DNA of 64,000 nucleotides from Flavobacterium sp. (GTDB taxonomy: Bacteria; Bacteroidota; Bacteroidia; Flavobacteriales; Flavobacteriaceae). The DNA lies in the NCBI GenBank assembly GCA_030591585.1, contig JAUVAS010000006.1, positions 1,714-65,713 on the forward strand. Reading direction: 5' to 3'. The notes beneath the pieces were generated by a model. That model was not told the DNA's origin, ran no database searches, and saw nothing but the letters and a program-made list of their open reading frames with translations. Position numbers and translations under genes: made by a program. Below are positions 47,239 to 59,392 of this stretch, piece after piece. Each line of letters opens with the position of its first letter. Within the stretch, counting starts at the first letter, position 1.

Positions 47239-48495
47239 TTATTTTTTTACAATTAGTTTTTCAGTAGCTATCATAATACCATTTTCAAAAAACGTTACAA
47301 AATAAATTCCATTATTAAAACTAGAGATATCAATACTAATTCTATTATATAATTCATCTTCTGAAATAATTTTCCTTCCCTGAATGTCTAATATATCAAT
47401 AGACAAATTATCGGTACTTGTACTATTAAAATCGATATTAAAATTAGTGCTATTTGAAGGGTTTGGATAGATTGTAAAGTGCTTATTACTATATTTAAAA
47501 TCGCTTGTGTTTAATATTGTGGTTGTCCCACAATCTGATACCCTTAAAACAATTCTTCCTGATAAAACAAAACCTATTTCATTGGAAACAAAATCAATAT
47601 CTGAATAGCCTGATAATGGTAATTGATTTGAAGTAATGGTTGTCTCAAAAAGGCAATATTCTTCTTCCCAGTTTTCACCAGAATTAATAGATTTATTTAT
47701 AGAAAGTTGAATACAGTCACACATAAACACTATTATTTCAGAAGTAAACCCTAAATTGTCATTATGAAAATATAGTTTTGAAGTATAGAATACAGGTAAT
47801 GAGAAATCAACCCAGTCAATATTGTTACTAGTTTTAAAGCCAGTGTTTCCTCCAGCCAATAAAAATGAAAAATTAGCTGTTGACGAAAGAGAAGATAGAT
47901 TGTCATTAGTATTGATGTTGCTTTCATTCCAAGTATTCCCTCCATTTAGCGTATGGAATAGAGTGCCGTTATTACCAGCAATAAATCCGATATCAGCATC
48001 TCTAAAACTTATACTATTAAATTTTTCGCTAGACATTGTATTATCTATGACCCAAGTATCTCCTTGATCGGTTGAATTTAATACTGTTCCATTATCACCA
48101 ACCACCCAAATAGTATTTAGCGAAGGCATAGAAATTGAAAATAGATCGTTGGATATTCCTGAAGATAAAAGTGTCCATTCTTCACCACCATTGGTAGTTT
48201 TAATGATAGTGCCGTTTCCACCAACAGCAAAGCCAATATCATTATTGTAAAAAGTCATATCGAAAAAATATTCAGAAATCCCTGTAGTATACTCCATCCA
48301 GTTTACACCACCATCTTCACTTTTTAAAAATATTCCATCATCCAAAATTACAGATACTAAGTTTTCATCAATAGCTCAAATGGCACCATATTGTTCGCTA
48401 TTTGAAGAATTAATGATTTGATGATTCCACCCTTCTTGTGAAAACACTTGAGTGGTAACAAAAAAAGTAACGAAGAAGAAAAGAGAGAATTTCAT
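47239..48495 (-). pseudogene. BNR/Asp-box beta-propeller protein with T9SS C-terminal sorting domain, interrupted by an in-frame TGA
   Basis: ATG 48495 plus signal peptide MKFSLFFFVTFFVTTQVFSQEGW is in frame with the 47239-48345 ORF but separated by TGA at 48376-48378 (...YGAI*AIDENL...). Asp-box repeats SEDGGVNW, TTNGGEEW, STDQGDTW, TLNGGNTW, SINSGENW. C-terminal YPNPS...GIYFV...KLIVKK is a T9SS CTD. Confidence 0.7.
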
Positions 48496-48738: not shown

Positions 48739-50646
48739 ATGAGTAAAATAATAGGAATCGATTTAGGAACCACCAATTCTTGTGTGGCTGTGATGGAAGG
48801 TAGTGAGCCAACCGTTATCCCTAATGCTGAAGGGAAGAGAACAACCCCTTCAGTTATTGCATTTGTAGAAGATGGTGAAATTAAAGTGGGAGATTCTGCT
48901 AAAAGACAAGCGGTAACCAACCCAACAAAAACCATTTCTTCTATTAAGAGATTTATGGGAAACAGTTTTTCTGAATCTAGCAAAGAAGCAGATCGTGCTG
49001 CATTTAAAGTAGTAAAAGGTGATAATGACACCGCTCGTGTAGATATCGACGGAAGAATGTATACACCTCAAGAATTATCAGCAATGATTCTTCAGAAAAT
49101 GAAGAAAACAGCAGAAGATTACTTAGGGCACGATGTAACAGAAGCAGTTATTACAGTACCTGCATACTTTAACGACAGTCAACGTCACGCAACAAAAGAA
49201 GCGGGTGAGATTGCTGGATTAAAAGTAAGAAGAATCATCAACGAACCTACGGCAGCAGCCTTAGCTTACGGAATGGACAAAAAGGGAACCGACCAAAAAA
49301 TCGTAGTATTCGATTTTGGAGGAGGTACTCATGATGTTTCAATCCTTGAATTAGGTGATGGTGTTTTTGAAGTATTGTCAACAGACGGTGATACACATTT
49401 AGGGGGTGACGATATAGATCAAGAAATTATTAACTGGCTAGCAGAAGAGTTTAAAAAAGATGAGGATATAGACCTTCGTAAAGACCCAATGGCTTTACAA
49501 CGTTTAAAAGAAGCTGCAGAAAAAGCAAAGATTGAATTGTCTGCTTCTACACAAACAGAAATCAATTTACCTTATGTAACGGCTACCGCTAGCGGGCCAA
49601 AGCACTTGGTAAGAAGTTTGTCACGTTCTAAGTTTGAACAATTAATAGACAGTTTAGTAAAACGTACCATCGCACCTTGTGAGAAAGCATTAAAAGATGC
49701 AGGTCTTTCAAAAAGTGATATTGATGAAATTATTTTAGTAGGGGGATCTACTCGTATTCCTGCAGTGCAAGAAGCGGTAGAAAAGTTCTTCGGAAAAAAA
49801 CCTAACAAAGGAGTGAATCCAGATGAGGTAGTAGCATTAGGAGCTGCGATTCAAGGTGGTGTGTTGACAGGAGATGTGAAAGATGTATTATTATTAGATG
49901 TAACACCACTTTCATTAGGTATTGAAACTATGGGAGGTGTAATGACTCATTTAATTGAATCTAACACGACCATTCCAACTAAGAAATCGCAAGTATTCTC
50001 TACAGCAGCAGATAATCAACCAAGTGTTGAGATTCATGTAATGCAAGGAGAACGTCCAATGGCAAATGATAATAAAACAATAGGTCGTTTCCATTTAGAT
50101 GGAATTCCACCAGCACGTAGAGGAACGCCACAGATTGAAGTTACTTTCGATATTGATGCCAATGGTATTATTAAAGTAAGTGCTACCGATAAAGCAACTG
50201 GAAAATCTCAAGACATTCGTATTGAAGCATCTTCAGGATTAACAGATGAGGAAATCCAAAAAATGAAAGCAGATGCAGAAGCAAATGCAGAATCTGATAA
50301 GTTAGCAAAAGAAAAAGCTGATAAGTTGAATGAAGCAGACTCGATGATTTTCCAAACAGAAAAGCAATTGGAAGAATTTGGGGATAAAATCTCTGATGAC
50401 AACAAAAAACCAGTTGAAGAAGCTTTAGCAGAATTAAAAGCTGCTTTTGAGACTAAGGAAGTTGAAACCATTCAACCTGCTTTAGACAAAATTAATGAAG
50501 CTTGGAAAGCAGCCTCAGAAGAAATGTATAAAGCACAAGCCGAAGCGCAACAAGCTGGAGCTCCAACAGGAGATGCTGGTGCGCAAGAAGAGCCAACAGA
50601 CGAAAATAGCGATGTTGAGGATGTTGACTTTGAAGAAGTGAAGTAA
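48739..50646 (+). CDS. dnaK: Molecular chaperone DnaK (Hsp70)
   Basis: [22 protein letters not shown]-type block ([10 protein letters not shown]), [14 protein letters not shown], and an acidic C-terminal EEVK tail. Confidence 0.98.
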
Positions 50647-50679
50647 GCAGAGAACACCTTTTGCTTAGCAAAAGGTTGT

Positions 50680-50711
50680 GAATCGCTTATGCTGAGCTTG
50701 TCGAAGTATCT
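50680..50711 (+). repeat. REP-like post-stop element
   Basis: gaatcgcttatgctgagcttgtcgaagtatct, preceded by the hairpin accttttgc-tta-gcaaaaggt (50655-50677). It ends in GAAGTATCT, a one-base variant of the shared GAAGAATCT. Confidence 0.45.
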
Positions 50712-50724
50712 AGTAGAAAAAAAA

Positions 50725-50750
50725 GGCGACCCGATTGGGTCGCCTTTTTT
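50725..50750 (+). terminator. Rho-independent terminator of dnaK
   Basis: GC-rich 8-bp stem ggcgaccc/gggtcgcc, loop gatt, a T6 run, and an A8 run upstream. Confidence 0.9.
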
Positions 50751-50779
50751 GTTAGATTATTGGTTTAGGTTTAATTCAT

Positions 50780-50787
50780 TATTTTTG
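50780..50787 (+). promoter_or_regulatory. Candidate -7 promoter box for the three-hydrolase operon
   Basis: TATTTTTG matches TAnnTTTG and ends 23 nt before ATG 50810, about 30 nt after the dnaK terminator. Confidence 0.45.
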
Positions 50788-50809
50788 CGAGCTATTATTA
50801 ATTGTTAAT

Positions 50810-52258
50810 ATGAAAAACATCCCCAATTTCCTGCTTTCAAAAAAATGGTTATTATTGATATTATTTATTTCAACCATATCTTTTAGCCAAGAAAATAGTG
50901 TTACTTACGAGTTGTTCAATAACAACGAATTGTTTTCTAAAAAAAAATGTATCACAGATGAGATTGAGTTTTCATCTTTAGAGGTAAAATTTGATAAAGG
51001 AGATGCGGCCTTAGTTAAAAGCACTTCCCTTACAATTATTTTAAACGAAATGTTCGAAGAGCATTTTTTAGATTATAAAGAGTTTAATAAATTCAACTTA
51101 AGAGAATGGTTGTTAAACCATAAGATAAGTAAAAATAAAGAGTTTCTTGTTTTCGATTATTTTATTCTATTAAAAGACAATACCATTCAAAGACAAAAAA
51201 GAAAGTATTGTGTTAAAAATATAGATAAATTAATTAAAGAAAGTTCTGATCAAAAAGAGGAGTTTATAAAGTTACCAATATTCTTCGCTACAGATAGAGA
51301 TTATAATCCAGACGTAGGTTTTGATGACCAATTTGGAGGAGAACGATCCGATTTAAAATATGGTTTCTCAGTTATTAGTATTCCTAAGATTCATAAAGTA
51401 GGAGAGATTGAGGCTCCTTCCTATTGGAAGCTAGAATTTTGGGAAGACCCAGAGAAACATATTGTAGTTCATTCTATAAATATGTTAAACAAGTATAATT
51501 TTTATACTAAGTTATCTGAGAGGATTGATCAATCACCAAAAAAACGAACCTTTTTATTTATTCACGGTTTTAATGTTTCGTTTATAGATGCTGCTAAAAG
51601 AACTGCTCAAATGACCTATGACCTTAAGTTTGATGGTGCCCCTGTTTTTTATAGTTGGCCTTCCCAGGCATCTGTAAGTGCTTATACAATGGATGAAGCA
51701 ACAATTGAATGGTCTGAAAAGAAAATAGAAAATTTTCTAAAAGATTACTTATCAAAAACAAATGCAGAAGAAATTTATTTGATAGCTCATAGTATGGGGA
51801 ATCGTGCATTGACAAAAGCGATTATATCTGTGGTTTCAGAAAACCCTGAACTTAAATCAAAGATTAAAGAAATCATATTGGCAGCGCCAGATATTGATGC
51901 TGGTGTTTTTAAAAGAGATATTGCTCCTAAAATGGTGTCAATTATTAGCAGACCAATCACGTTATATGTTTCGTCTAAAGATGTTGCTCTTCAAGCTTCA
52001 CACGTAGTTCATGGGGCTGCAAGGGCTGGAGATTCTAACGATTCTATAGTAGTTGTAGACGGGATAGAAACAATAGATGCCTCTAGTGTTGATACAAGTT
52101 TATTTGGTATGGGTCATTCGTATATTTCAGATTCACCATCTATAATAGAAGATATTCTTGATCTTATAAAAACATCAGATAGAGCAGATGTAAGAGATCA
52201 ATTGATAAAAATGAAAACAGATGAAGATGTTTTTTGGGAAATAAACTACAAAAACTAG
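50810..52258 (+). CDS. Exported DUF900-family alpha/beta hydrolase with an unassigned N-terminal domain of about 150 aa
   Basis: Signal peptide LLLILFISTISFSQE. DUF900 blocks: FFATDR, YGFSVISIPK, FLFIHGFNVSFIDAAKRTAQM, PVFYSWPS, LIAHSMGN (nucleophile Ser), LAAPDID, GHS. Confidence 0.8.
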   Translation: MKNIPNFLLSKKWLLLILFISTISFSQENSVTYELFNNNELFSKKKCITDEIEFSSLEVKFDKGDAALVKSTSLTIILNEMFEEHFLDYKEFNKFNLREWLLNHKISKNKEFLVFDYFILLKDNTIQRQKRKYCVKNIDKLIKESSDQKEEFIKLPIFFATDRDYNPDVGFDDQFGGERSDLKYGFSVISIPKIHKVGEIEAPSYWKLEFWEDPEKHIVVHSINMLNKYNFYTKLSERIDQSPKKRTFLFIHGFNVSFIDAAKRTAQMTYDLKFDGAPVFYSWPSQASVSAYTMDEATIEWSEKKIENFLKDYLSKTNAEEIYLIAHSMGNRALTKAIISVVSENPELKSKIKEIILAAPDIDAGVFKRDIAPKMVSIISRPITLYVSSKDVALQASHVVHGAARAGDSNDSIVVVDGIETIDASSVDTSLFGMGHSYISDSPSIIEDILDLIKTSDRADVRDQLIKMKTDEDVFWEINYKN

Positions 52259-52263
52259 TTAAA

Positions 52264-53715
52264 ATGATTAAGAATATATTTTTAAAAATAGTTGTTATAT
52301 TAATTATTTGCATTACTTCTTTAGTCGGATTTTCACAAGATGATGCGGGATATAATTTTCCAATGGGTATCAGCGAAAATGATTTTGAGGAATTAGAAAA
52401 AATGCCTCAAAAAGCAGTGCTAACACGTAGCTTTTACGATGCTGTAAATTTACCAAATGCGTTTTCTTTAAAGCAGTATGCTCCAATTCCTAAAGAACAA
52501 AAGTATGGCACATGTGCTGCTTGGGCAACAGCGTATGCAGCAAGAACGATCATTGAAGCAAAAGCAAACAACTGGACAGATAAAGAAGAGATTACTAAAA
52601 ATGCATTTTCACCAGCATTTACTTATAGAATTACAGAGCCTAGCAATAAAAAATGTAAAGGTGCAAGTACCCTTTCCGTAGTTTCTTCTTTGAAAATGGT
52701 AGGTGCTTTGCCTTTGAGTGAATGGGAAGTAGATGAAAATGATAAAAAAGAGTATTACTGTCCAGATGAATTAGATGTTGACCTTTCTGTTTTAGCTTCA
52801 AATTTTAAAATTATTGATTTTTCAAAACTTTTTTCAGATCCAAAACCAAGAGGCTCAAAAACAGAAAAGGTTAAATTAAGCTTATCTAATGGAAATCCAG
52901 TAGTAATAATGATGTCTTGCCCAGATTCATTTCAGAGAATTTCAGCATCTGTGTGGGAGCCAAAAGAGTATCCCAATTTTGGAAAATATGGGAATCATGC
53001 AATGACAGTGGTTAGCTATGATAATGATAAATTTGGAGGAGCTTTCGAAATTCAAAATAGCTGGGGTACAGACTATGCGGATGGTGGTTATGTTTGGATT
53101 ACCTATAAAGACTTTAACGCATTTGTGTACGGTGCAATCGAATTGTTTGAATACGTAGCGCCAGAGCCTGAAGCACCTTTGTTTAAAGGAGCTTTGTCGG
53201 TTTTGAATACCGAAACAAATAAAAAACTAACAGCCAGTCTTATAGCTAATGAAAGTTCAAATACTTATAAAGTAAATGAACCTTTAATCGCTGGAAGCAG
53301 AATAAGGTTTTATCTTCAAAATAATGAATCTGCGTATGTATATGTTTTGGGGACGGGTTCTGTAGATACTTCTGTAAATAAGCTTTTTCCAGTAGCTGGT
53401 ACTACGGCACTTTTAAATTACAAGGAGAATGAAGTGCCTTTACCTTCAGAAGAGCATTATTTTGAAATGGATAATACTGTAGGAAAAGATTATATCAGTT
53501 TATTATATTCTAAAGAGGTATTAGATATTGATAAGTTGTTAGAGTTTTTAAATGATTCTGAAGGAACTATAGATAAAAAAATATTTGATATATTTGACAG
53601 CCAAATCATTCCAAATAACGAGATACAATTTAATAAAAACGAAGTAAAATTCGAAACCTTTTCAAAAGACAAATCAAAAATAATGAGTATCATTATTGAG
53701 TTTGATCATAATTAA
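52264..53715 (+). CDS. Exported papain-like (C1 family) cysteine peptidase with C-terminal DUF4384-like domain
   Basis: Start at ATG 52264 gives signal peptide MIKNIFLKIVVILIICITSLVGFSQDD. Catalytic Cys context QKYGTCAAWATAYA, His GNHAMTVVSYD, Asn/Trp FEIQNSWGTDYADGGYVWITY. The C-terminal RIRFYLQNNESAYVYVLGTG...NKLFP...GKDYISLLYS resembles DUF4384. Confidence 0.8.
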   Translation: MIKNIFLKIVVILIICITSLVGFSQDDAGYNFPMGISENDFEELEKMPQKAVLTRSFYDAVNLPNAFSLKQYAPIPKEQKYGTCAAWATAYAARTIIEAKANNWTDKEEITKNAFSPAFTYRITEPSNKKCKGASTLSVVSSLKMVGALPLSEWEVDENDKKEYYCPDELDVDLSVLASNFKIIDFSKLFSDPKPRGSKTEKVKLSLSNGNPVVIMMSCPDSFQRISASVWEPKEYPNFGKYGNHAMTVVSYDNDKFGGAFEIQNSWGTDYADGGYVWITYKDFNAFVYGAIELFEYVAPEPEAPLFKGALSVLNTETNKKLTASLIANESSNTYKVNEPLIAGSRIRFYLQNNESAYVYVLGTGSVDTSVNKLFPVAGTTALLNYKENEVPLPSEEHYFEMDNTVGKDYISLLYSKEVLDIDKLLEFLNDSEGTIDKKIFDIFDSQIIPNNEIQFNKNEVKFETFSKDKSKIMSIIIEFDHN

Positions 53716-53740
53716 AAAGGAACACTTAACCACCCAACTT

Positions 53741-55072
53741 ATGAAACAGTTTATTACATTATTACTTTTAATAGCATTTGTTGCCGTAAACGCACAAAAA
53801 ACCCGAAATTTCAATGTCTTTAAAGAAAATAAAATTGAATCTAATAATGACAAAATAGCATTAGTAATAGCCAATAGTGACTACGATATTGGGAAGTTAG
53901 ACAAGCCTGTAGAAGAAGCTGAGTATTTAATAAAAGCTCTTGAAAAGCAAGGATATGATGTGCAAATTGGATATAATCTAGATCAAGCTAATATGAAAAA
54001 AGCGATCATCGAGTTTTCTAAGAAATTTAATTCTTACAAAAGCGGGTTGGTGTATTATGCAGGTCATGGTTTTCAGATAGATGGTGAAAATTATTTAGTG
54101 CCAACAGACACACCACAAACCGATGTGATGTTTGAATTAAAGAGCTCTTTAGTAAATGTTGACTATGTTTTTGAAGCGATTAACGACCCAAAAAAACCAA
54201 AAATCATCATATTAGATGCGTGTAGAAACAACCCTTTTAAAGATAAATTAGCATCGTCTTACAGAGGACTTGATGATAACGGATTTTCAGAAATTAAAGC
54301 GCAAATAAACAGTGAAATATTATTCTCAACAGCAGCAGGAACTAAAGTAAATGATGATAACCCTTTTACCAGAATTTTTAGTGAAGAAATTATCAAAGGT
54401 GGTTGTTATGATGATATTTTGCGTAGAACTAATTCTCGTGTTAGAGAAGAAAATCCAAGACAGATTTTAGCAACTATGGGATTTCTTGAAGACAAAATAT
54501 GTTTTGGGGAAGAGAAAAAAGAAGCGCCTGTGACTCCTGTAATTGTTAATAATAATCAAGATATTTCAGTTAATAAAAGTGTAAATGTTAATGATTTGGA
54601 AGAAACGTTGGCTTGGATGCAAGGAAAAATAACAGGAATTAGTTATTATAAATATTATAATACTGGAGCTTTATCTAAAAACTTTTATCGTGAGAGTAAG
54701 TATAAAATAGAATATGATACTAATAAATGTGAACTAAAATTAATTGAAGAAGATTCATACGTTGAAGACAGAAACTCGGTTAGAAATGATAGAGTGTCAA
54801 ATATTACCTATAGTTTTAACTTATCTGATATTTCAACAGTTGCGATAGAAGAAGATAATTTTAATGGGAAGAATTTTAAAATTAATACGCACAATAATAA
54901 AAAAGCAATTCACAAAGTATCAAAAGGTTGGGCTAGTCAAACAATTGATTTGGATGAGTTTTATATAAAATATACAGATTTGGGAGATTTAAAAGATCAC
55001 CCAGAACGTTTTGTAAAAGCATTTACAGATGCTGTTAAAATGTGTGGAGGAAGTAAAAAAGAGAAATATTAA
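53741..55072 (+). CDS. Exported caspase-like (peptidase C14) protein with an unassigned C-terminal domain of about 180 aa
   Basis: Start at ATG 53741 gives signal peptide MKQFITLLLLIAFVAVNAQK. KIALVIANSDYD, catalytic His in VYYAGHGFQIDGENYLVPTD, catalytic Cys in KIIILDACRNNPF. Confidence 0.85.
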   Translation: MKQFITLLLLIAFVAVNAQKTRNFNVFKENKIESNNDKIALVIANSDYDIGKLDKPVEEAEYLIKALEKQGYDVQIGYNLDQANMKKAIIEFSKKFNSYKSGLVYYAGHGFQIDGENYLVPTDTPQTDVMFELKSSLVNVDYVFEAINDPKKPKIIILDACRNNPFKDKLASSYRGLDDNGFSEIKAQINSEILFSTAAGTKVNDDNPFTRIFSEEIIKGGCYDDILRRTNSRVREENPRQILATMGFLEDKICFGEEKKEAPVTPVIVNNNQDISVNKSVNVNDLEETLAWMQGKITGISYYKYYNTGALSKNFYRESKYKIEYDTNKCELKLIEEDSYVEDRNSVRNDRVSNITYSFNLSDISTVAIEEDNFNGKNFKINTHNNKKAIHKVSKGWASQTIDLDEFYIKYTDLGDLKDHPERFVKAFTDAVKMCGGSKKEKY

Positions 55073-55126
55073 AATTACGTTTTTGTTGATTTAACACAAC
55101 TTTTGCACCATATAATATAGTTTTTA

Positions 55127-55134
55127 TACCTTTG
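55127..55134 (+). promoter_or_regulatory. Candidate -7 promoter box immediately upstream of the HYC_CC_PP-like gene
   Basis: TACCTTTG matches TAnnTTTG but ends only 9 nt before ATG 55143, which would give a nearly leaderless mRNA. Confidence 0.3.
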
Positions 55135-55142
55135 GAGTATAA

Positions 55143-55559
55143 ATGAAATATTTTTTTAGAAATATAACAGTATTTACTTTAGCCACTTTGGTGCTAGTAT
55201 CTACGATGTCGTTTACCATAAACAAACATTTTTGTGGTGATTACTTAGTAAGTACTTCACTAGTATTAAAGGGGGATACTTGTGGTATGGAAAAACAAAT
55301 TTCTACTACTAAGAAAGGTTGTTTTATTCTAAAAAAGAACTGTTGTAAAGACGAAATTCAATTAGTTAAGGGTCAAGATGATTTAAAGATTGACTTTTCA
55401 GAATTAGATTTTCAACAACAAATTTTCATTACTTCTTTTGTAATCTCTTACTCTAATTTATTTGAAGTATTAGATTCTCAAACTATTCCTTTTAAAGAGT
55501 ATTCTCCTCCTCTGCTGGTTAAGGACATTCAGTTACTTGACCAAGTATTTTTAATTTGA
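55143..55559 (+). CDS. Small Cys-containing membrane-anchored protein, HYC_CC_PP-like, first gene of the metal-efflux cluster
   Basis: 138 aa with an N-terminal hydrophobic helix. Ordered motifs NKHFCGDY, TCGMEK, KNCCKDE and YSPPLL fit the pattern implied by the family name (H-aromatic-C, CC, PP) as I recall it from Bacteroidota metal-efflux loci. Confidence 0.5.
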   Translation: MKYFFRNITVFTLATLVLVSTMSFTINKHFCGDYLVSTSLVLKGDTCGMEKQISTTKKGCFILKKNCCKDEIQLVKGQDDLKIDFSELDFQQQIFITSFVISYSNLFEVLDSQTIPFKEYSPPLLVKDIQLLDQVFLI

Positions 55560-55580
55560 TCTAATTTTTTAAATGAAACA

Positions 55581-55636
55581 TTGCAATCTCGTTAAGGGGT
55601 TGCCACGTCACTCATTCTTCGTTTCTCGCAATGACA
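55581..55636. repeat. REP-like imperfect palindrome between the HYC_CC_PP-like gene and cusA
   Basis: ttgcaatctcgttaaggggttgccacgtcactcattcttcgtttctcgcaatgac. The reverse complement starts gtcattgcgagaaacgaagaatg, related to gtcattcagaacgaag at 2094. Outer arms cattgc.../...gcaatg. Confidence 0.5.
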
Positions 55637-55684
55637 GAGATAAGAAGATGCATTCATTAAATAATCAAATTAAAAATAAAACAC

Positions 55685-58600
55685 ATGCTCAATAAAAGCA
55701 TAAAATACTTAATAGAGAATAAACTCGTAGCGGTATTGCTATTAGTATTATTTATTGGTTGGGGAATCTCAACAGCACCCTTTAATTGGGATACTGGAAA
55801 CTTTCCTAGAAATCCTGTGGCGGTAGATGCCATCCCAGACATCGGCGAAAACCAACAAATTGTTTTCACCAAATGGGAGGGGCGTTCTCCGCAAGATATA
55901 GAAGATCAAATAACGTATCCATTAACTTCTTCATTATTGGGGATTCCAGGAGTAAAAACCATTCGTAGTTCTTCTATGTTTGGGTTTTCTAGTATCTATA
56001 TCATTTTTGAAGAAGATATAGAATTCTATTGGAGTCGAAGCAGAATTTTAGAGAAACTAAATTCACTTCCAGCCAATTTATTACCAACCGAAGTACAACC
56101 AAGTCTAGGGCCAGATGCTACTGGATTAGGTCAGATATATTGGTACACTTTAGAAGGACGTGATGAAAACGGAAATGTAACAGGAGGTTGGGATTTACAT
56201 GAATTGCGAAGTATTCAAGATTATTACGTGAAGTATGCGCTTTCTTCAGCTTCAGGAGTATCTGAAGTAGCTTCCATTGGTGGATTTGTTCAAGAGTATC
56301 AAATAGATGTAGCTCCAGATGTTTTAAAGGAATACGGAATTTCTCTTCAGCAAGTAGTAAATGCTGTTCGTAAAACCAATAAAGATATTGGAGCTAAAAC
56401 GATTGAAATCAATCAAGCAGAATATTTAGTAAGAGGCTTAGGGTACGTTAAATCGGTTGCAGATATTGAAAATGCTGTGGTGACTTCAGAAAATTTAACT
56501 TCCATATTAATAAAAGACATTGCAAAAGTTTCACTAGGACCTGCAGAGCGAAGAGGAATGCTAGATAAAGAAGGAGCTGAGGTCGTAGGAGGTGTAGTGG
56601 TTGCTCGTTATGCTGCTAACCCAATGGAAGTCATCACTAATGTAAAAGAAAAAATAGCAGAAATTAGTGCAGGTTTACCATCCAAAATATTAAAAGACGG
56701 ACGAACGTCACAATTAACCATTGTACCATTTTACGACCGTACAGAATTGATTCAAGAAACGCTACATACCTTAAATGAAGCGTTATCAATGGAAATCATC
56801 ATCACCATTTTAGTGATTGTTTTGATGTTGTTTAACCTTAGAGTTTCTATTTTAATTTCAGGATTATTACCTGTGGCAGTACTAATGGTTTTTATTACCA
56901 TGAAAATGTTTAATGTAGATGCAAACATTGTGGCACTTTCTGGGATTGCCATTGCCATTGGTACGATGGTGGATGTTGGTGTGATACTTTCTGAAAATAT
57001 TATTCGACATCTTGAAGAAGAAAAGAGAAATGAAAAAAGAGAAGAGAAAAAAGAGAAGAGAAAAAAGACTGTTAATGAGATAGTTTACAGTGCTACTAAA
57101 GAAGTTTCAGGAGCCATTATTACTGCAGTGATGACGACCATTATCAGTTTTATTCCTGTGTTTACAATGATTGGCGCTGAAGGGAAATTATTCCGTCCAT
57201 TAGCATTTACAAAAACAATGGCATTAACTTCCTCTTTAATTGTGGCTTTATTTTTAATTCCACCCTTTGCTGCCTGGTTATTTGGTTGGAAATCTCCCAA
57301 GAAAAAGTTTGGACTCATTCTTAATATTAGCATGATTTCTGTAGGGGTTTTCGGTTTAGTAAGTGGTTATTATTTAGGGCTAATTTTAATAGGATTTGCA
57401 GTTTCAAGCATCTTGAAATCAAAAGAAATTCTTTCAGAAACCAAAGCAAACCTTTTAAATATTGCCATAACAACAATTGCAATTGTAATTCTATTGAGTA
57501 TTTATTGGAGGCCTTTAGGAGTAGATTATTCTATTATTTCAAACCTTCTATTTGTAAGTGTTATTTGCTTCGGATTGTTGAGTGTTTTCATATTATTTAG
57601 AAAGAATTATGTTCGAATTTTAGAGTGGGCTTTGGAGAATAAAGTATTGTTTTTAAGCATCCCTGCTATTATAATTGTCTTTGGAATTACTATAATGAAC
57701 AACACAGGTAAAGAGTTTATGCCTGCTTTAGATGAAGGCTCTTTTCTATTAATGCCAACATCATTACCACATGCGGGAGTTGCTGAAAACAAAAGAATAT
57801 TACAGCAATTAGATATGGCAGTTGCCTCTATACCAGAAATAAAAACGGTGGTTGGAAAAGCTGGTAGAGTTGAAAGTGCCTTAGACCCCGCGCCCTTATC
57901 GATGTATGAAAATATGATTATTTATACTTCGGAATATAAGCAGGATGCTGATGCTAATAGAGTAAAATTTAAAGTAAATGAAGATGATTTATTTGAAACA
58001 ATTTCGGGGAAATTCATAACTTCAGGAACAAAAATAGAAAGCAAAGAGCTAATTGAAGATGAAGATGGTAATTACTATCGAAATTGGCGAACAGAAATAA
58101 AATCACCCGATGATATCTGGAATGAAGTTGTACGGGTCACTAAGTTGCCTGGAATTACTTCAGCGCCAAAGTTGCAGCCTATTCAAACCAGATTGGTAAT
58201 GCTTCAAACAGGAATGAGAGCACCCATGGGAATAAAAGTGAAAGGACAAAACCTAGCTGATATCGAAGCCTTCGGTATTGAATTAGAAAAAATATTAAAG
58301 AAGGTTCCTGGGGTTAAAAAAGAAGCTGTTTTTGCTGATAGAATTGTAGGGAAACCTTATTTGCTAATCGATATAGATCGAGAAAAAATTGCTCGTTATG
58401 GATTATCAATTGATGATGTTCAAACTGTGTTAGAAGCTGCTATTGGAGGGAAAGTATTATCTCAGACCGTGGAGGGAAGAGAACGGTATGGAATACGAGT
58501 TCGGTACCCTAGAGAGTTGCGTACGAGTCCGAGTGATTTAGGGAAAATTTATGTTCCAACTCCTAAAGGAAATCCAATTCCATTAAAAGAATTGGTAGAA

Positions 58601-59392
58601 ATTAAATACGAACAAGGACCGCAAGTTATTAAAAGTGAAGATACCTTTTTAGTGGGTTATGTGCTGTTTGATAAACTAGATGATGAAGCGGAAGTAACTG
58701 TAGTAAAAAGAGCCCAAGACGCTATAGAAAGAGCCATTGAAAGAGGAGAGATAACAGTCCCAAAAGGAATTAACTATAAATTTACAGGAACTTATGAGAA
58801 TCAATTAAGAGCCGAAAAAACGCTTTCAATTGTAGTTCCGTTAGCCTTGTTGGTTATTTTTATGATTCTTTATTTTCAGTTTAAATCTGTTTCAACTTCA
58901 TTAATGGTATTCACAGGAATCGCAGTTGCTTTTGCTGGTGGATTTATTATGATATGGTTATATGGTGAACCTTGGTTTTTGAATTTTAATTTCTTCGGAA
59001 TCAACCTAAGAGAATTATTTCAAATGAATCCAATAAATTTGAGTGTTGCCGTATGGGTTGGATTTATAGCACTCTTCGGAATTGCAACCGATGATGGAGT
59101 AGTGATGGCAACTTATCTAACACAAACTTTCGAAAGAAACAATCCTAAATCTAAAGAAGAAATAAGAGCATCGATAGTTGAAGCAGGAGAGAAGCGAATT
59201 CGCCCTTGTTTAATGACGACCGCAACAACTATTTTGGCATTATTACCAATCTTGACTTCAACAGGACGCGGAAGCGATATTATGATTCCAATGGCAATAC
59301 CAAGCTTTGGAGGGATGTTGATTGCTTTAATTACATTGTTTGTAGTGCCGGTTTTGTTTAGCTGGAAGAAGGAGTTGGAAGCTAGAAACTAG
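55685..59392 (+). CDS. cusA: CusA/CzcA-family heavy-metal efflux RND transporter
   Basis: 1235 aa, 12-TM RND layout. The N-terminal VDAIPDIGENQQIVFTKWEGRSPQDIEDQITYPLTS and later ALSGIAIAIGTMVDVGVILSEN are CusA/CzcA-like. It lies with adaptor and TolC-like genes. Confidence 0.9.
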   Translation: MLNKSIKYLIENKLVAVLLLVLFIGWGISTAPFNWDTGNFPRNPVAVDAIPDIGENQQIVFTKWEGRSPQDIEDQITYPLTSSLLGIPGVKTIRSSSMFGFSSIYIIFEEDIEFYWSRSRILEKLNSLPANLLPTEVQPSLGPDATGLGQIYWYTLEGRDENGNVTGGWDLHELRSIQDYYVKYALSSASGVSEVASIGGFVQEYQIDVAPDVLKEYGISLQQVVNAVRKTNKDIGAKTIEINQAEYLVRGLGYVKSVADIENAVVTSENLTSILIKDIAKVSLGPAERRGMLDKEGAEVVGGVVVARYAANPMEVITNVKEKIAEISAGLPSKILKDGRTSQLTIVPFYDRTELIQETLHTLNEALSMEIIITILVIVLMLFNLRVSILISGLLPVAVLMVFITMKMFNVDANIVALSGIAIAIGTMVDVGVILSENIIRHLEEEKRNEKREEKKEKRKKTVNEIVYSATKEVSGAIITAVMTTIISFIPVFTMIGAEGKLFRPLAFTKTMALTSSLIVALFLIPPFAAWLFGWKSPKKKFGLILNISMISVGVFGLVSGYYLGLILIGFAVSSILKSKEILSETKANLLNIAITTIAIVILLSIYWRPLGVDYSIISNLLFVSVICFGLLSVFILFRKNYVRILEWALENKVLFLSIPAIIIVFGITIMNNTGKEFMPALDEGSFLLMPTSLPHAGVAENKRILQQLDMAVASIPEIKTVVGKAGRVESALDPAPLSMYENMIIYTSEYKQDADANRVKFKVNEDDLFETISGKFITSGTKIESKELIEDEDGNYYRNWRTEIKSPDDIWNEVVRVTKLPGITSAPKLQPIQTRLVMLQTGMRAPMGIKVKGQNLADIEAFGIELEKILKKVPGVKKEAVFADRIVGKPYLLIDIDREKIARYGLSIDDVQTVLEAAIGGKVLSQTVEGRERYGIRVRYPRELRTSPSDLGKIYVPTPKGNPIPLKELVEIKYEQGPQVIKSEDTFLVGYVLFDKLDDEAEVTVVKRAQDAIERAIERGEITVPKGINYKFTGTYENQLRAEKTLSIVVPLALLVIFMILYFQFKSVSTSLMVFTGIAVAFAGGFIMIWLYGEPWFLNFNFFGINLRELFQMNPINLSVAVWVGFIALFGIATDDGVVMATYLTQTFERNNPKSKEEIRASIVEAGEKRIRPCLMTTATTILALLPILTSTGRGSDIMIPMAIPSFGGMLIALITLFVVPVLFSWKKELEARN

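Follow-up and report, generated by a model that had tools for sequence, protein, structure and literature searches.

A three-gene locus of predicted exported hydrolases in a marine Flavobacteriaceae genome as a possible envelope-located protease-effector module

Bacteroidota export several clan-CD and papain-like cysteine proteases, such as the gingipains (C25), fragipain (C11) and the Bfp/SpeB-like C10 enzymes, which have a caspase or papain fold, use the Sec pathway and are usually lipoproteins or T9SS cargo. Fragipain activates the B. fragilis toxin, which shows that an exported clan-CD protease can serve to activate a second exported hydrolase. In VMAP systems a caspase 'always' has an alpha/beta-hydrolase as its partner (Kaur et al. 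2020, PMC7159879), and LcCaspase activates the LcHydrolase zymogen by a cut between R and G (Evans et al. 2025, bioRxiv 10.1101/2025.11.14.688446). Cyanobacterial and other orthocaspases carry FGE-sulfatase, GUN4, TPR, Sel1 or WD40 accessory domains (PMC5756287, PMC7475262). Moreover, the C-terminal domains of some Csx30 proteins are DUF4384 (bioRxiv 10.1101/2022.08.17.504292), thus DUF4384 recurs as a companion, or substrate domain, of clan-CD proteases. Among DUF900-type enzymes, we found only one in the literature whose activity has been demonstrated: Cinquedea of Haloferax larsenii, a secreted bactericidal phospholipase A. Most of its homologues match Pfam DUF900, and they are rare in bacteria (bioRxiv 10.64898/2026.06.10.730825).

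We analysed a 64,000-nucleotide stretch of DNA (the window) from a marine Flavobacteriaceae genome, in which three hydrolase genes, g1, g2 and g3, lie downstream of dnaK with the following features.

50725..50750, + strand: dnaK intrinsic terminator (8-bp GC stem, GATT loop, T6 run)
50780..50787, + strand: TATTTTTG, candidate -7 promoter box of the Bacteroidota type, with 22 nt between it and the g1 ATG
50810-52258, + strand: g1, 482 aa, DUF900 serine hydrolase, predicted exported
50900..51214, + strand: g1NT, the g1 N-terminal beta-sandwich (model pLDDT about 90, all-beta)
52264-53715, + strand: g2, 483 aa, papain-like C1 peptidase with DUF4384, predicted exported
53290..53514, + strand: DUF4384 domain of g2 (Pfam)
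53741-55072, + strand: g3, 443 aa, caspase-like C14 peptidase, predicted exported
54587..55069, + strand: g3CT, modelled alpha+beta domain (pLDDT 75-91 over aa 283-434)

Because homologue alignments start there, ATG 52264 (the mechanical ORF start is TTG 52234) and ATG 53741 are the most likely starts of g2 and g3, and the spacers are 5 nt between g1 and g2 and 25 nt between g2 and g3. ORFs and alignments thus confirmed the tight same-strand arrangement described in the initial annotation, and judged by this packing the three genes appear operon-like. The dnaK terminator, which had been called strong, folds with a dG of -25.4 kcal/mol and a z of -6.1 (stem 50725-50744, T-run 50745-50750), and 0/200 shuffles fold as well; a terminator consensus scan did not pick it up. 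This terminator separates the operon from dnaK. On the other side of the locus, g3 is followed by HYC_CC_PP (55143-55559) and then by a CusA-like gene, where the initial annotation placed a copper-efflux cluster. The operon had also been given its own TAnnTTTG box, and TATTTTTG does match this motif. As an operon promoter it is a plausible but weak candidate, because the window contains no more TAnnTTTG than chance would give (93 found vs 104 expected), yet TATTTTTA is present at the corresponding position in the relatives L001 and L003/L093.

The g1 protein consists of a signal peptide (aa 1-26), a beta-sandwich (aa 31-135), a flexible linker (aa 136-151) and an alpha/beta-hydrolase core (aa 152-478), with Pfam DUF900 matching at aa 231-448 (E 7.5e-50) and with S328 (AHSMG), D361/D363 (APDID) and H436 invariant in 26 aligned sequences. 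About 125 N-terminal residues have no Pfam match, and g1NT, which has invariant C47/C134, was found by jackhmmer only in Flavobacteriaceae orthologues. The model gives a confident beta-sandwich, then a disordered linker at aa 141-148, and then the hydrolase core. The closest structural matches are lipases, cutinases and esterases (TM 0.2-0.5), and this generic fold similarity would suggest a lipid substrate. The linker is variable except for R[GS], mostly TRS/TRG/SRG, which is present in 86 of the 118 aligned sequences (one of them a stray g2 protein, P0122). The motif is absent from the linker of the window's own g1, which has only Lys, and from its closest relatives.

In g2, a C1 peptidase (aa about 60-295; Peptidase_C1, E 6.4e-8) is followed by a Pro-rich linker, DUF4384 (aa 343-417; E 8.9e-7, or 1.9e-7 when the C-terminal part was searched alone) and a conserved tail (aa 418-483), and Q79, C84, H245, N265 and W267 do not vary among 30 sequences of 37-79% identity. 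The g3 protein has a C14 domain (aa 38-256; Peptidase_C14, E 3.7e-24, aa 38-241) with H109 and C161 invariant in 12 sequences, a low-complexity linker (aa 257-282) and g3CT. Its acidic S1 residues E59/D159 are located at the positions of MALT1 D365/D462, which form a basic-P1 pocket, and cleavage after Arg/Lys is predicted. For the ~160 residues of g3CT neither a Pfam match nor a meaningful PDB match was obtained, and from its model g3CT appears to be a novel alpha+beta domain. It also exists as stand-alone exported proteins of ~175 aa that end in ...CGGxKKEK[YF], with 15 clusters among the 1.84 billion representatives searched. The family assignments and catalytic sets proposed in the initial annotation, including the DUF4384-like tail of g2, therefore held under profile searches and alignment for all three proteins, and the two ends it had left unassigned, the N-terminus of g1 and the C-terminus of g3, are now modelled as a beta-sandwich and an alpha+beta domain.

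All three N-termini, previously described as signal-peptide-like, kept this character: each combines an n-region with a hydrophobic core and ends in a small -3/-1 site of SPI type, as judged from sequence features and a crude heuristic, with predicted cleavage between SFS and Q27 in g1, GFS and Q25 in g2, and VNA and Q19 in g3. Within each family, position +1 is always or almost always Gln, consistent with the Bacteroidetes Q-rule (PMC5837995). A conserved lipobox Cys is present in none of the three proteins, and a Pfam search gave no Por_Secre_tail match in them. Hence the products most likely leave the cytoplasm and, because other sorting signals are absent, most likely reside in the periplasm. 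Of the secreted or periplasmic location suggested earlier, the periplasmic one is the likelier, and release past the outer membrane is unsupported because a T9SS C-terminal domain is lacking. These observations bear on the view that g1-g3 are independent degradative or antagonistic exoenzymes that digest external protein and lipid to feed, to prey or to kill competitors, none of them being under the proteolytic control of another. Export of all three products and the killing of bacteria by a secreted DUF900-type phospholipase A speak for it, and Flavobacteriaceae are polymer degraders. We nevertheless regard it as unlikely, since neither a T9SS domain nor a lipobox supports release, SusC/SusD or PUL context is absent, no immunity gene against a periplasmic lipase is adjacent, and C14 enzymes of clan CD usually process their substrates at specific sites.

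The two protease genes form a pair that is kept together across Bacteroidota, in which the caspase partner swaps its binding domain between one genome and the next. A C14 gene directly adjoins the C1-DUF4384 homologue at 44/80 independent metagenomic loci (55%), as against 17/384 non-adjacent ORFs and 3/492 background ORFs (~1-4% per ORF), and 34 of 43 such C14 genes share the strand of their C1-DUF4384 neighbour. All ten sampled C14 neighbours were Peptidase_C14 by Pfam, each with a different accessory domain; TPR, Sel1, MORN and WG repeats, FGE-sulfatase and Ig-like domains occur at the pair loci, and g3CT is found here. The pair is adjacent in L091, L173 and L174 and close in L089, and L089, L173 and L174 are clusters with several paralogues. 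Such strict pairing and such diverse non-catalytic domains would be unexpected for bulk digestion. CHASE2 receptors are often linked to the pair caspases, and a four-gene set of C14, C1-DUF4384, a small exported DUF4384-like protein and CHASE2(-Guanylate_cyc) recurs at at least 12 loci. This wiring in other Bacteroidota to CHASE2 membrane receptors or cyclases, in place of DUF900, suggests interchangeable outputs of one extracytoplasmic proteolytic switch.

The full triad is restricted to one small clade (1/84 C1 loci and 1/~40 DUF900-g1NT genome loci), and DUF900 is missing from 83/84 C1-DUF4384 loci. Within this clade it is kept in L001/L009, L003/L093 and L004. Its spacers in relatives (23/22, 34/19 and -4/11 nt) stay tight down to ~50% protein identity, also where flanks have changed. 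In other Flavobacteriaceae, of sister genera, about 23 of the ~40 DUF900-g1NT loci in species genomes have a type-B operon (Trypsin_2+Ank, DUF900, c2, C14+DUF4384, CHAT x n) whose protease products are exported. About 16 of the ~40 orthologues have no protease neighbour, and the same holds for nearly all DUF900 homologues from outside the family, thus the DUF900 enzyme can work without an adjacent protease. The ancestral location of DUF900, close to umuDC and dnaK, is kept in several genera with or without proteases, therefore the protease pair could simply have inserted beside it, and the three genes could be unrelated exported hydrolase genes that are adjacent by chance. This is disfavoured and very improbable, given the persistence of tight spacers, the independent linkage of the same DUF900 orthologue group to a second clan-CD protease set, and the C1/C14 adjacency far above background; the co-localisation about which the initial annotation asked is non-random. 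It had also asked about variable islands, but the triad has been passed on vertically next to dnaK and umuDC and is not in such an island; no mobile context was found, and the housekeeping flanks differ from those of typical defence islands. There is no NTPase sensor at the locus, and PADLOC gave no model match for g1 or g2 and a marginal caspase match for g3 (E 5e-4).

In another explanation, the triad is an extracytoplasmic signalling or regulatory module that reports an external or envelope cue, the caspase carries a variable binding domain, the proteases process envelope proteins or receptors, and DUF900 is a co-regulated envelope-maintenance esterase, with no killing. The CHASE2 sets agree with this, as do housekeeping flanks, vertical inheritance without an immunity or toxin-like partner, and a DUF900 core that is ~50% identical across phyla and mostly stand-alone, which fits a conserved enzyme of normal physiology. 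However, no CHASE2 gene or other transducer is present in or beside the window's triad, and swapped caspase binding domains together with paralogue clusters resemble diversifying recognition rather than signalling along a fixed pathway. We consider this explanation somewhat unlikely.

We tentatively prefer, as a possibility short of probable, that the triad is a protease-effector module of the cell envelope, most likely of the periplasm. By analogy with the caspase/alpha-beta-hydrolase zymogen pairs that anti-phage systems have in the cytoplasm, it would best be read as a variant of these that is exported. The C14 caspase and the C1 protease would act jointly as a sensing and processing pair, and the DUF900 enzyme would be a latent output, inactive or mislocalised through its N-terminal beta-sandwich. 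Cleavage in the flexible linker would free the enzyme to hydrolyse an envelope ester substrate, most plausibly membrane phospholipid, and the cell would be killed or arrested, or its envelope remodelled. The modelled anatomy of g1, the R[GS] linkers and g3 E59/D159 are consistent with such processing; the missing R[GS] in the window's own g1 counts against it, and protease-free DUF900 orthologues, PADLOC silence and housekeeping flanks count against the module. The activation cascade, antagonism, suicide and role in conflict or cell death we infer only by analogy with cytoplasmic modules of this type (PMC7159879; bioRxiv 10.1101/2025.11.14.688446). As the initial annotation had anticipated, we found no paper describing this three-family composition. 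The conservation of the two proteases as neighbours across Bacteroidota points to an apparently undescribed protease-controlled envelope system.

Compared with the known systems, Cinquedea would resemble g1 as an exported alpha/beta hydrolase through Pfam DUF900, but it is an archaeal single-gene unit with no protease partner. Type III-E CRISPR Craspase, in which TPR-CHAT Csx29 cleaves Csx30, also combines a caspase-like protease with a DUF4384-bearing partner, but it is cytoplasmic and RNA-guided with a sigma-factor pathway as output, whereas the triad has no CRISPR components and its DUF4384 is fused to a papain-like protease with an apparently intact active site. Gingipains, fragipain and Bfp belong to MEROPS C25, C11 and C10, not to C14 or C1 as do g3 and g2, and we know of none that forms a C1-DUF4384/C14 pair with variable binding domains. 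Orthocaspases share with g3-type caspases the C14 p20 with its His-Cys dyad, basic P1 specificity and highly variable accessory domains, but g3CT is not listed for them, and g3 differs further in its export and in its strict pairing with a C1-DUF4384 gene. The zymogen pairs are alike in that a clan-CD caspase-like protease gene lies beside an alpha/beta-fold serine hydrolase gene, the hydrolase has an N-terminal segment whose joining region contains Arg-Gly/Ser in most orthologues here, and basic P1 preference is predicted for the caspase. In length and linker the likeness would be looser (482 aa with a beta-sandwich N-domain and, in the window, no linker Arg, vs ~300 aa for LcHydrolase). Unlike those pairs, the triad is without a STAND, vWA-MoxR, GTPase or other NTPase sensor; it has an additional papain-like C1-DUF4384 protease, and signal peptides on all its products make it an extracytoplasmic module.

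Three plus-strand ORFs lie within 50780-55072 of the window and encode a DUF900 protein (g1), a papain-like Peptidase_C1 protein with a DUF4384 domain (g2) and a caspase-like Peptidase_C14 protein (g3), together called the triad. The features of the locus are as follows.

50725-50750: dnaK hairpin terminator with T-run (by folding, dG -25.4 kcal/mol, z -6.1)
50810-52258, + strand: g1, ORF of 482 aa
52264 (ATG start), + strand: g2, 483 aa; homologue alignments begin at this ATG, and the raw ORF begins at TTG 52234
53741 (ATG start), + strand: g3, 443 aa; this ATG is supported by homologue alignments, and the raw ORF begins at TTG 53696
54587-55069: C-terminal alpha+beta domain of g3 (g3CT)

With the ATG starts at 52264 and 53741, the spacers are 5 nt between g1 and g2 and 25 nt between g2 and g3. 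A strong dnaK terminator had been proposed upstream of the triad in the initial annotation and was confirmed by folding; the consensus terminator scan reported none in 50500-55800 and missed this hairpin, and its negatives are unreliable. The TAnnTTTG box proposed to precede g1 is indeed present, as TATTTTTG located 22 nt 5′ of the g1 ATG, but the motif occurs in the window at chance frequency (93 observed versus 104 expected) and is not kept exactly in relatives. Because relatives have TATTTTTA at the position of the window's TATTTTTG, the box is a plausible candidate promoter; the sigma-70 consensus scan was uninformative at the triad. The triad is followed by an HYC_CC_PP gene and then a CusA-like pump, and at 55143-59392 these are an HYC_CC_PP match with E 4.6e-37 and a 1235-aa RND protein. 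The window and the related loci L003/L093 have this block after the triad, and in L001/L009 an HMBD gene and an endonuclease stand there instead; because other genes replace it in relatives, we regard the block as an insertion outside the unit. No paralogues of g1-g3 were found elsewhere in the window. On the minus strand at 47239-48345, a 368-aa ORF with BNR/Sortilin-like repeats has a C-terminus whose sequence resembles a T9SS sorting domain (...FTIYPNPSNSTNFNIDF...GIYFVTFFENG...), a tail that the triad proteins do not have.

All three proteins start with a basic n-region, a hydrophobic core of 11-14 residues and a cleavage site of small residues, after which comes Gln (SFS|Q27 in g1, GFS|Q25 in g2 and VNA|Q19 in g3). 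In all three families the +1 Gln varies little or not at all; it is the signature of Bacteroidota signal peptidase I substrates known as the Q-rule (PMC5837995). Hence, as judged from sequence features, the N-termini are signal-peptide-like, as had been claimed. Invariant Cys pairs (C47/C134 in g1, C131/C166 in g2 and C330/C435 in g3CT) fit an oxidising compartment. A reading as lipoproteins or T9SS cargo was rejected because g1-g3 have no conserved lipobox Cys, the signal-peptide Cys of g2 being unconserved and without lipobox context, and no Pfam match to Por_Secre_tail (PF18962). The simplest reading is that g1, g2 and g3 are soluble periplasmic proteins.

The domain calls made at first (DUF900, C1 with DUF4384, and C14) were all borne out by Pfam, and the catalytic sets named with them are invariant in family alignments of 26, 30 and 12 sequences. 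For g1, the match to DUF900 (PF05990) reached 170 bits over profile positions 5-227 of 232 (cutoff 20.5, E 7.5e-50), and S328 in the GxSxG-type elbow AHSMG, D361/D363 and H436 are invariant among its 26 orthologues. The core of the AlphaFold2 model is an alpha/beta-hydrolase, with lipases, cutinases and esterases as Foldseek neighbours at modest scores. In the same model, residues 31-135 are confidently predicted to be an all-beta sandwich (pLDDT about 90), which a disordered linker of residues 141-148 joins to the core; this N-domain is restricted to Flavobacteriaceae orthologues and had no match in a Pfam search, and the g1 profile had no match among PDB sequences. The linker contains R[GS] in 86 of 118 aligned sequences, one of them a stray g2 protein (P0122), mostly as TRS, TRG or SRG, and is otherwise variable. 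The linkers of g1 in the window and in its nearest relatives have only Lys and lack that Arg, thus the argument for R|G-type cleavage is weaker for the window locus. The model is of low confidence for the highly conserved loop of residues 198-217, GEIExPSYWKLEFxEDPxKH, a possible lid. Outside Flavobacteriaceae, the DUF900 core (residues about 150-478) mostly comes from a gene that stands alone and encodes a signal peptide, and it is about 50% identical across phyla (46-55% in L051-L088, from Gammaproteobacteria, Verrucomicrobiota, Acidobacteriota, Omnitrophota, SAR324 and others). Such identity across distant phyla is unusually high for an uncharacterised hydrolase, and in these homologues the loop GEIExPSYW[KR][LF]EFxED, for which the prediction is of low confidence, is fully conserved.

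Protein g2 matched Peptidase_C1 with 33.4 bits (cutoff 20.7, E 6.4e-8), an alignment of 30 sequences, the most distant at 37% identity, shows no variation at its residues Q79, C84, H245, N265 and W267, and its profile matches the cysteine protease of PDB 3OIS (E 3.6e-17) and cathepsins. There is no inhibitor_I29 match, with about 35 residues between the signal-peptide site and the mature domain; in place of a papain-type propeptide, a short conserved K-A-x-L-T-R55 segment precedes the mature domain, and we speculate that it could be an activation site. DUF4384 (PF14326, cutoff 27) was matched with 29.3 bits by the whole protein (E 8.9e-7) and with 31.5 bits by the isolated C-terminal part, and is annotated in most full-length g2 homologues in precomputed records; by sequence it has no relative in the PDB.

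Protein g3 matched Peptidase_C14 with 86.1 bits (cutoff 21.4, E 3.7e-24), and H109 (YAGHG) and C161 (DACR) are invariant in 12 sequences. By Foldseek its N-terminal half is nearest to MALT1 (1.7e-11) and caspases. In the alignment, E59 and D159 coincide with acidic MALT1 residues which we take to be D365 and D462, binding the basic P1 side chain; because acidic residues are kept at these positions, g3 would be predicted to cleave after Arg/Lys, as orthocaspases do (PMC6426788). The score of g3 against the EACC1-associated caspase family NF047832 of NCBIfam was 37.4 bits, below the cutoff of 140, with no EACC1 gene nearby, and an exact look-up of the g3 sequence (P0001) found it not on record. 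The g3CT domain (residues 283-434) was confidently modelled by AlphaFold2 as an alpha+beta fold of a helix, about nine strands and a helix. No meaningful match was obtained for it by Pfam at E<=10, by PDB profile search or by a per-member Pfam scan, matches to alpha-actinin and vimentin coiled coils in the PDB being spurious, and Foldseek of the whole g3 model matched the caspase half only. The domain, found in g3 and in P0370-P0382, is rare (15 clusters in 1.84 billion representatives), and most of its members are stand-alone exported proteins of 170-185 aa, all with the conserved end ...CGGxKKEK[YF]-COOH. This charged, aromatic-terminated tail resembles a recognition tag.

We then turn to conservation of the gene order. 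The triad is present at 76-82% identity in L001/L009 (the 'Flavobacterium sp.' NORP82 MAG), at 62-68% in L003/L093, and at 50-54% with different flanks in L004; the spacers in relatives are 23/22, 34/19 and -4/11 nt, and the g2-g3 pair is kept on the truncated contigs L005-L008. Full-length g2-type proteins (C1 with DUF4384, 32-48% identity) are widespread in Bacteroidota, and their loci were surveyed by a metagenome contig scan (80 loci) together with direct look-ups. Among 80 C1 loci with at least one neighbouring ORF, counted with the orthologue L093 left out, a C14/CHAT gene stands immediately beside the C1-DUF4384 gene in 44 (55%), a lower bound because many contigs are truncated. By comparison, such genes make up 17 of the 384 ORFs that are not adjacent and 3 of the 492 at unrelated DUF900 loci. 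The adjacent C14/CHAT gene is on the strand of the C1 gene in 34 of 43 cases, and ten of ten sampled neighbours are C14 by Pfam with differing accessory domains (TPR, Glucodextran_B, MORN, WG repeats, FGE-sulfatase with DPBB, Sel1). In direct look-ups, C14 was adjacent in L091 (Solitalea), L173 and L174 and close in L089, and the C1 gene of L092 was solitary. A signal peptide was found by a crude heuristic in 45/53 caspases and 66/75 C1 proteins of the pair survey. Co-localisation beyond chance, on which the initial annotation had depended, is thus established by the tight spacers of the triad in relatives and by the 44 adjacent pairs, and chance adjacency is effectively excluded. DUF900 was found in 1 of 84 C1-DUF4384 loci, and therefore the exact three-family composition is confined to a small clade; the comparative pattern is broader than was seen at first.

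Full-length DUF900 orthologues with the N-domain are found throughout Flavobacteriaceae at 46-51% identity, in three contexts. Type A is the triad of the window, in one species genome and metagenomic relatives. In type B (about 23 genomes, e.g. Winogradskyella, Seonamhaeicola, Maribacter, Leeuwenhoekiella and Lutibacter), the order is Trypsin_2 with ankyrin, DUF900, a gene here called c2, C14 with DUF4384, and then two to four CHAT and C14 paralogues, some with long TPR arrays; nearly all the products have signal peptides. An example is L029:6360-17377 of Winogradskyella tangerina, with a C14-DUF4384 protein of about 660 aa, and further loci are L025, L030, L031, L033, L037, L041, L045 and L049. 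In type C, about 16 genomes (e.g. Polaribacter, near AdoHcyase and umuDC) have DUF900 without a protease neighbour. We argue for functional coupling because two different exported clan-CD protease/DUF4384 gene sets adjoin the same hydrolase, and the coupling is not obligatory because the DUF900 gene also occurs without proteases. That the three products are independent degradative enzymes is, in our judgement, unlikely; if they were merely envelope-maintenance enzymes, the strict protease pairing would still want explaining.

Conserved and exported, the c2 product (L029:9408-10832 and 23 homologues) is about 474 aa long, and Pfam has no match for it. Its N-terminal half looks helical, and its C-terminal third consists of alternating-hydrophobic strands and ends in ...FGISFSLFDLN, which suggests an outer-membrane beta-barrel. 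A divergent g2 at the same operon position was considered for c2 and rejected (hhalign probability 12%, with the signal peptides alone aligned).

The DUF900 gene lies beside umuD/umuC (Peptidase_S24, IMS) in several Flavobacteriaceae genera (L018, L020 and L046 versus L001 and L003), and in some of those lineages beside dnaK. It seems to hold an old chromosomal position, around which protease partners were gained or lost. Inheritance of the triad is vertical, and its place is between dnaK/umuDC and menaquinone genes; with such housekeeping flanks, the variable or mobile island that had been raised as a possible setting is not the case. A phage origin is unlikely, with 3 and 6 weak or rare matches among 2.9 million viral contigs.

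In other Bacteroidota the pair has another partner. In at least 12 loci the C1-DUF4384/C14 pair is accompanied by two further genes, one for a small exported DUF4384-like protein (about 190 aa) and one for a membrane protein with CHASE2; the C14 protein of this set has FGE-sulfatase or another domain (L117:2274-8144 and L151:5405-13147; also L120, L154, L166, L170, L172 and L091). Fusion of CHASE2 to an adenylate/guanylate cyclase is frequent, and the CHASE2 gene and the small gene share about 28 nt. Such an arrangement hints at input from the exported proteases and DUF4384 into the CHASE2 sensor domain, for which no ligand is known to us. A non-lethal regulatory or signalling module is accordingly worth naming for the triad as a possibility, though a rather doubtful one. 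At L089:1707-9473 (GCA_030427245.1), three C14 genes, one with FGE-sulfatase, lie just upstream of the C1-DUF4384 gene, and an exported 207-aa protein with the effector-associated domain EAD11 is encoded among the caspases. Through this locus the exported pair is connected with the adaptor domains typical of Aravind's conflict systems.

The best-supported interpretation of the triad is an envelope-located protease-effector module. It would have a conserved two-protease core, namely a C14 protein with a variable binding domain and a C1-DUF4384 protein, and interchangeable outputs, which would be the DUF900 lipase-like hydrolase in the window and CHASE2 receptors elsewhere. Activation of the module may kill the cell, remodel the envelope or only signal. 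The observation itself is solid, and the mechanism is drawn by analogy. A bolder proposal, which we think improbable, is that protease-gated bacterial immunity or programmed death has a branch outside the cytoplasm that works without an NTPase sensor. Exported caspases with swappable ligand-binding domains would then detect envelope damage or foreign molecules, e.g. incoming phage or effector proteins, and together with the papain-like C1-DUF4384 partner would trigger a membrane-destroying DUF900 phospholipase in the window and CHASE2-cyclase second-messenger signalling in other Bacteroidota. Such a system would be the periplasmic counterpart of cytoplasmic caspase-effector immune modules.

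Gating of effectors by proteases (gasdermins, CHAT/Craspase, caspase/alpha-beta-hydrolase, Pepco, EACC1) is increasingly recognised as a dominant principle in bacterial immunity, and all characterised examples known to us are cytoplasmic and act behind NTPase or nucleic-acid sensors. An exported version that lacks a sensor is defined by the window locus and its relatives: the C1-DUF4384/C14 pair is kept in Bacteroidota metagenomes of diverse origin (gut, soil, marine), and the binding domains of its caspase diversify. These loci also give the uncharacterised DUF900 and DUF4384 families a first genomic context, and they include a link to CHASE2. If the cascade is true, it would explain how regulated proteolysis and decisions on cell fate can be carried out in the bacterial periplasm, and would offer testable substrates for bacterial caspase homologues, few of which, as far as we know, have a known function. 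Our literature searches did not turn up any account of the C1-DUF4384/C14 pair, of DUF900-protease operons including type B, or of g3CT, and nothing relevant on CHASE2 with CHAT and caspase or on exported orthocaspases in Bacteroidetes. PADLOC-DB 2.0 gave no match for g1 or g2 and only a marginal generic caspase match for g3 (E 5.2e-4, 17 bits), and NCBIfam models likewise yielded nothing usable for g1-g3.

NTPase-centred conflict systems pair a caspase with an alpha/beta-hydrolase (PMC7159879), and LcCaspase cuts at R|G sites and thereby activates its partner alpha/beta-hydrolase zymogen (bioRxiv 10.1101/2025.11.14.688446). A secreted DUF900-type enzyme, the only one with demonstrated activity that we found, is a bactericidal phospholipase A (bioRxiv 10.64898/2026.06.10.730825). 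As in the caspase/alpha-beta-hydrolase modules (Kaur 2020; Evans 2025), the window has caspase (g3) and hydrolase (g1) genes in one operon, and this likeness extends to about 23 further genomes in which the DUF900 orthologue is beside C14/CHAT. By its residues, the R[GS] of the g1-family linker resembles the R|G sites cut by LcCaspase, although g1 of the window is without the Arg. Unlike the components of those modules, which are cytoplasmic, g1-g3 all have signal peptides; domain scans found no STAND, vWA-MoxR, GTPase or other intracellular sensor domain in g1-g3 or their neighbours, and the window has an additional papain-like protease, g2. We rate the triad as a variation on known protease-effector modules, for which the nearest known logic is the caspase/alpha-beta-hydrolase zymogen activation of NTPase-centred conflict systems.
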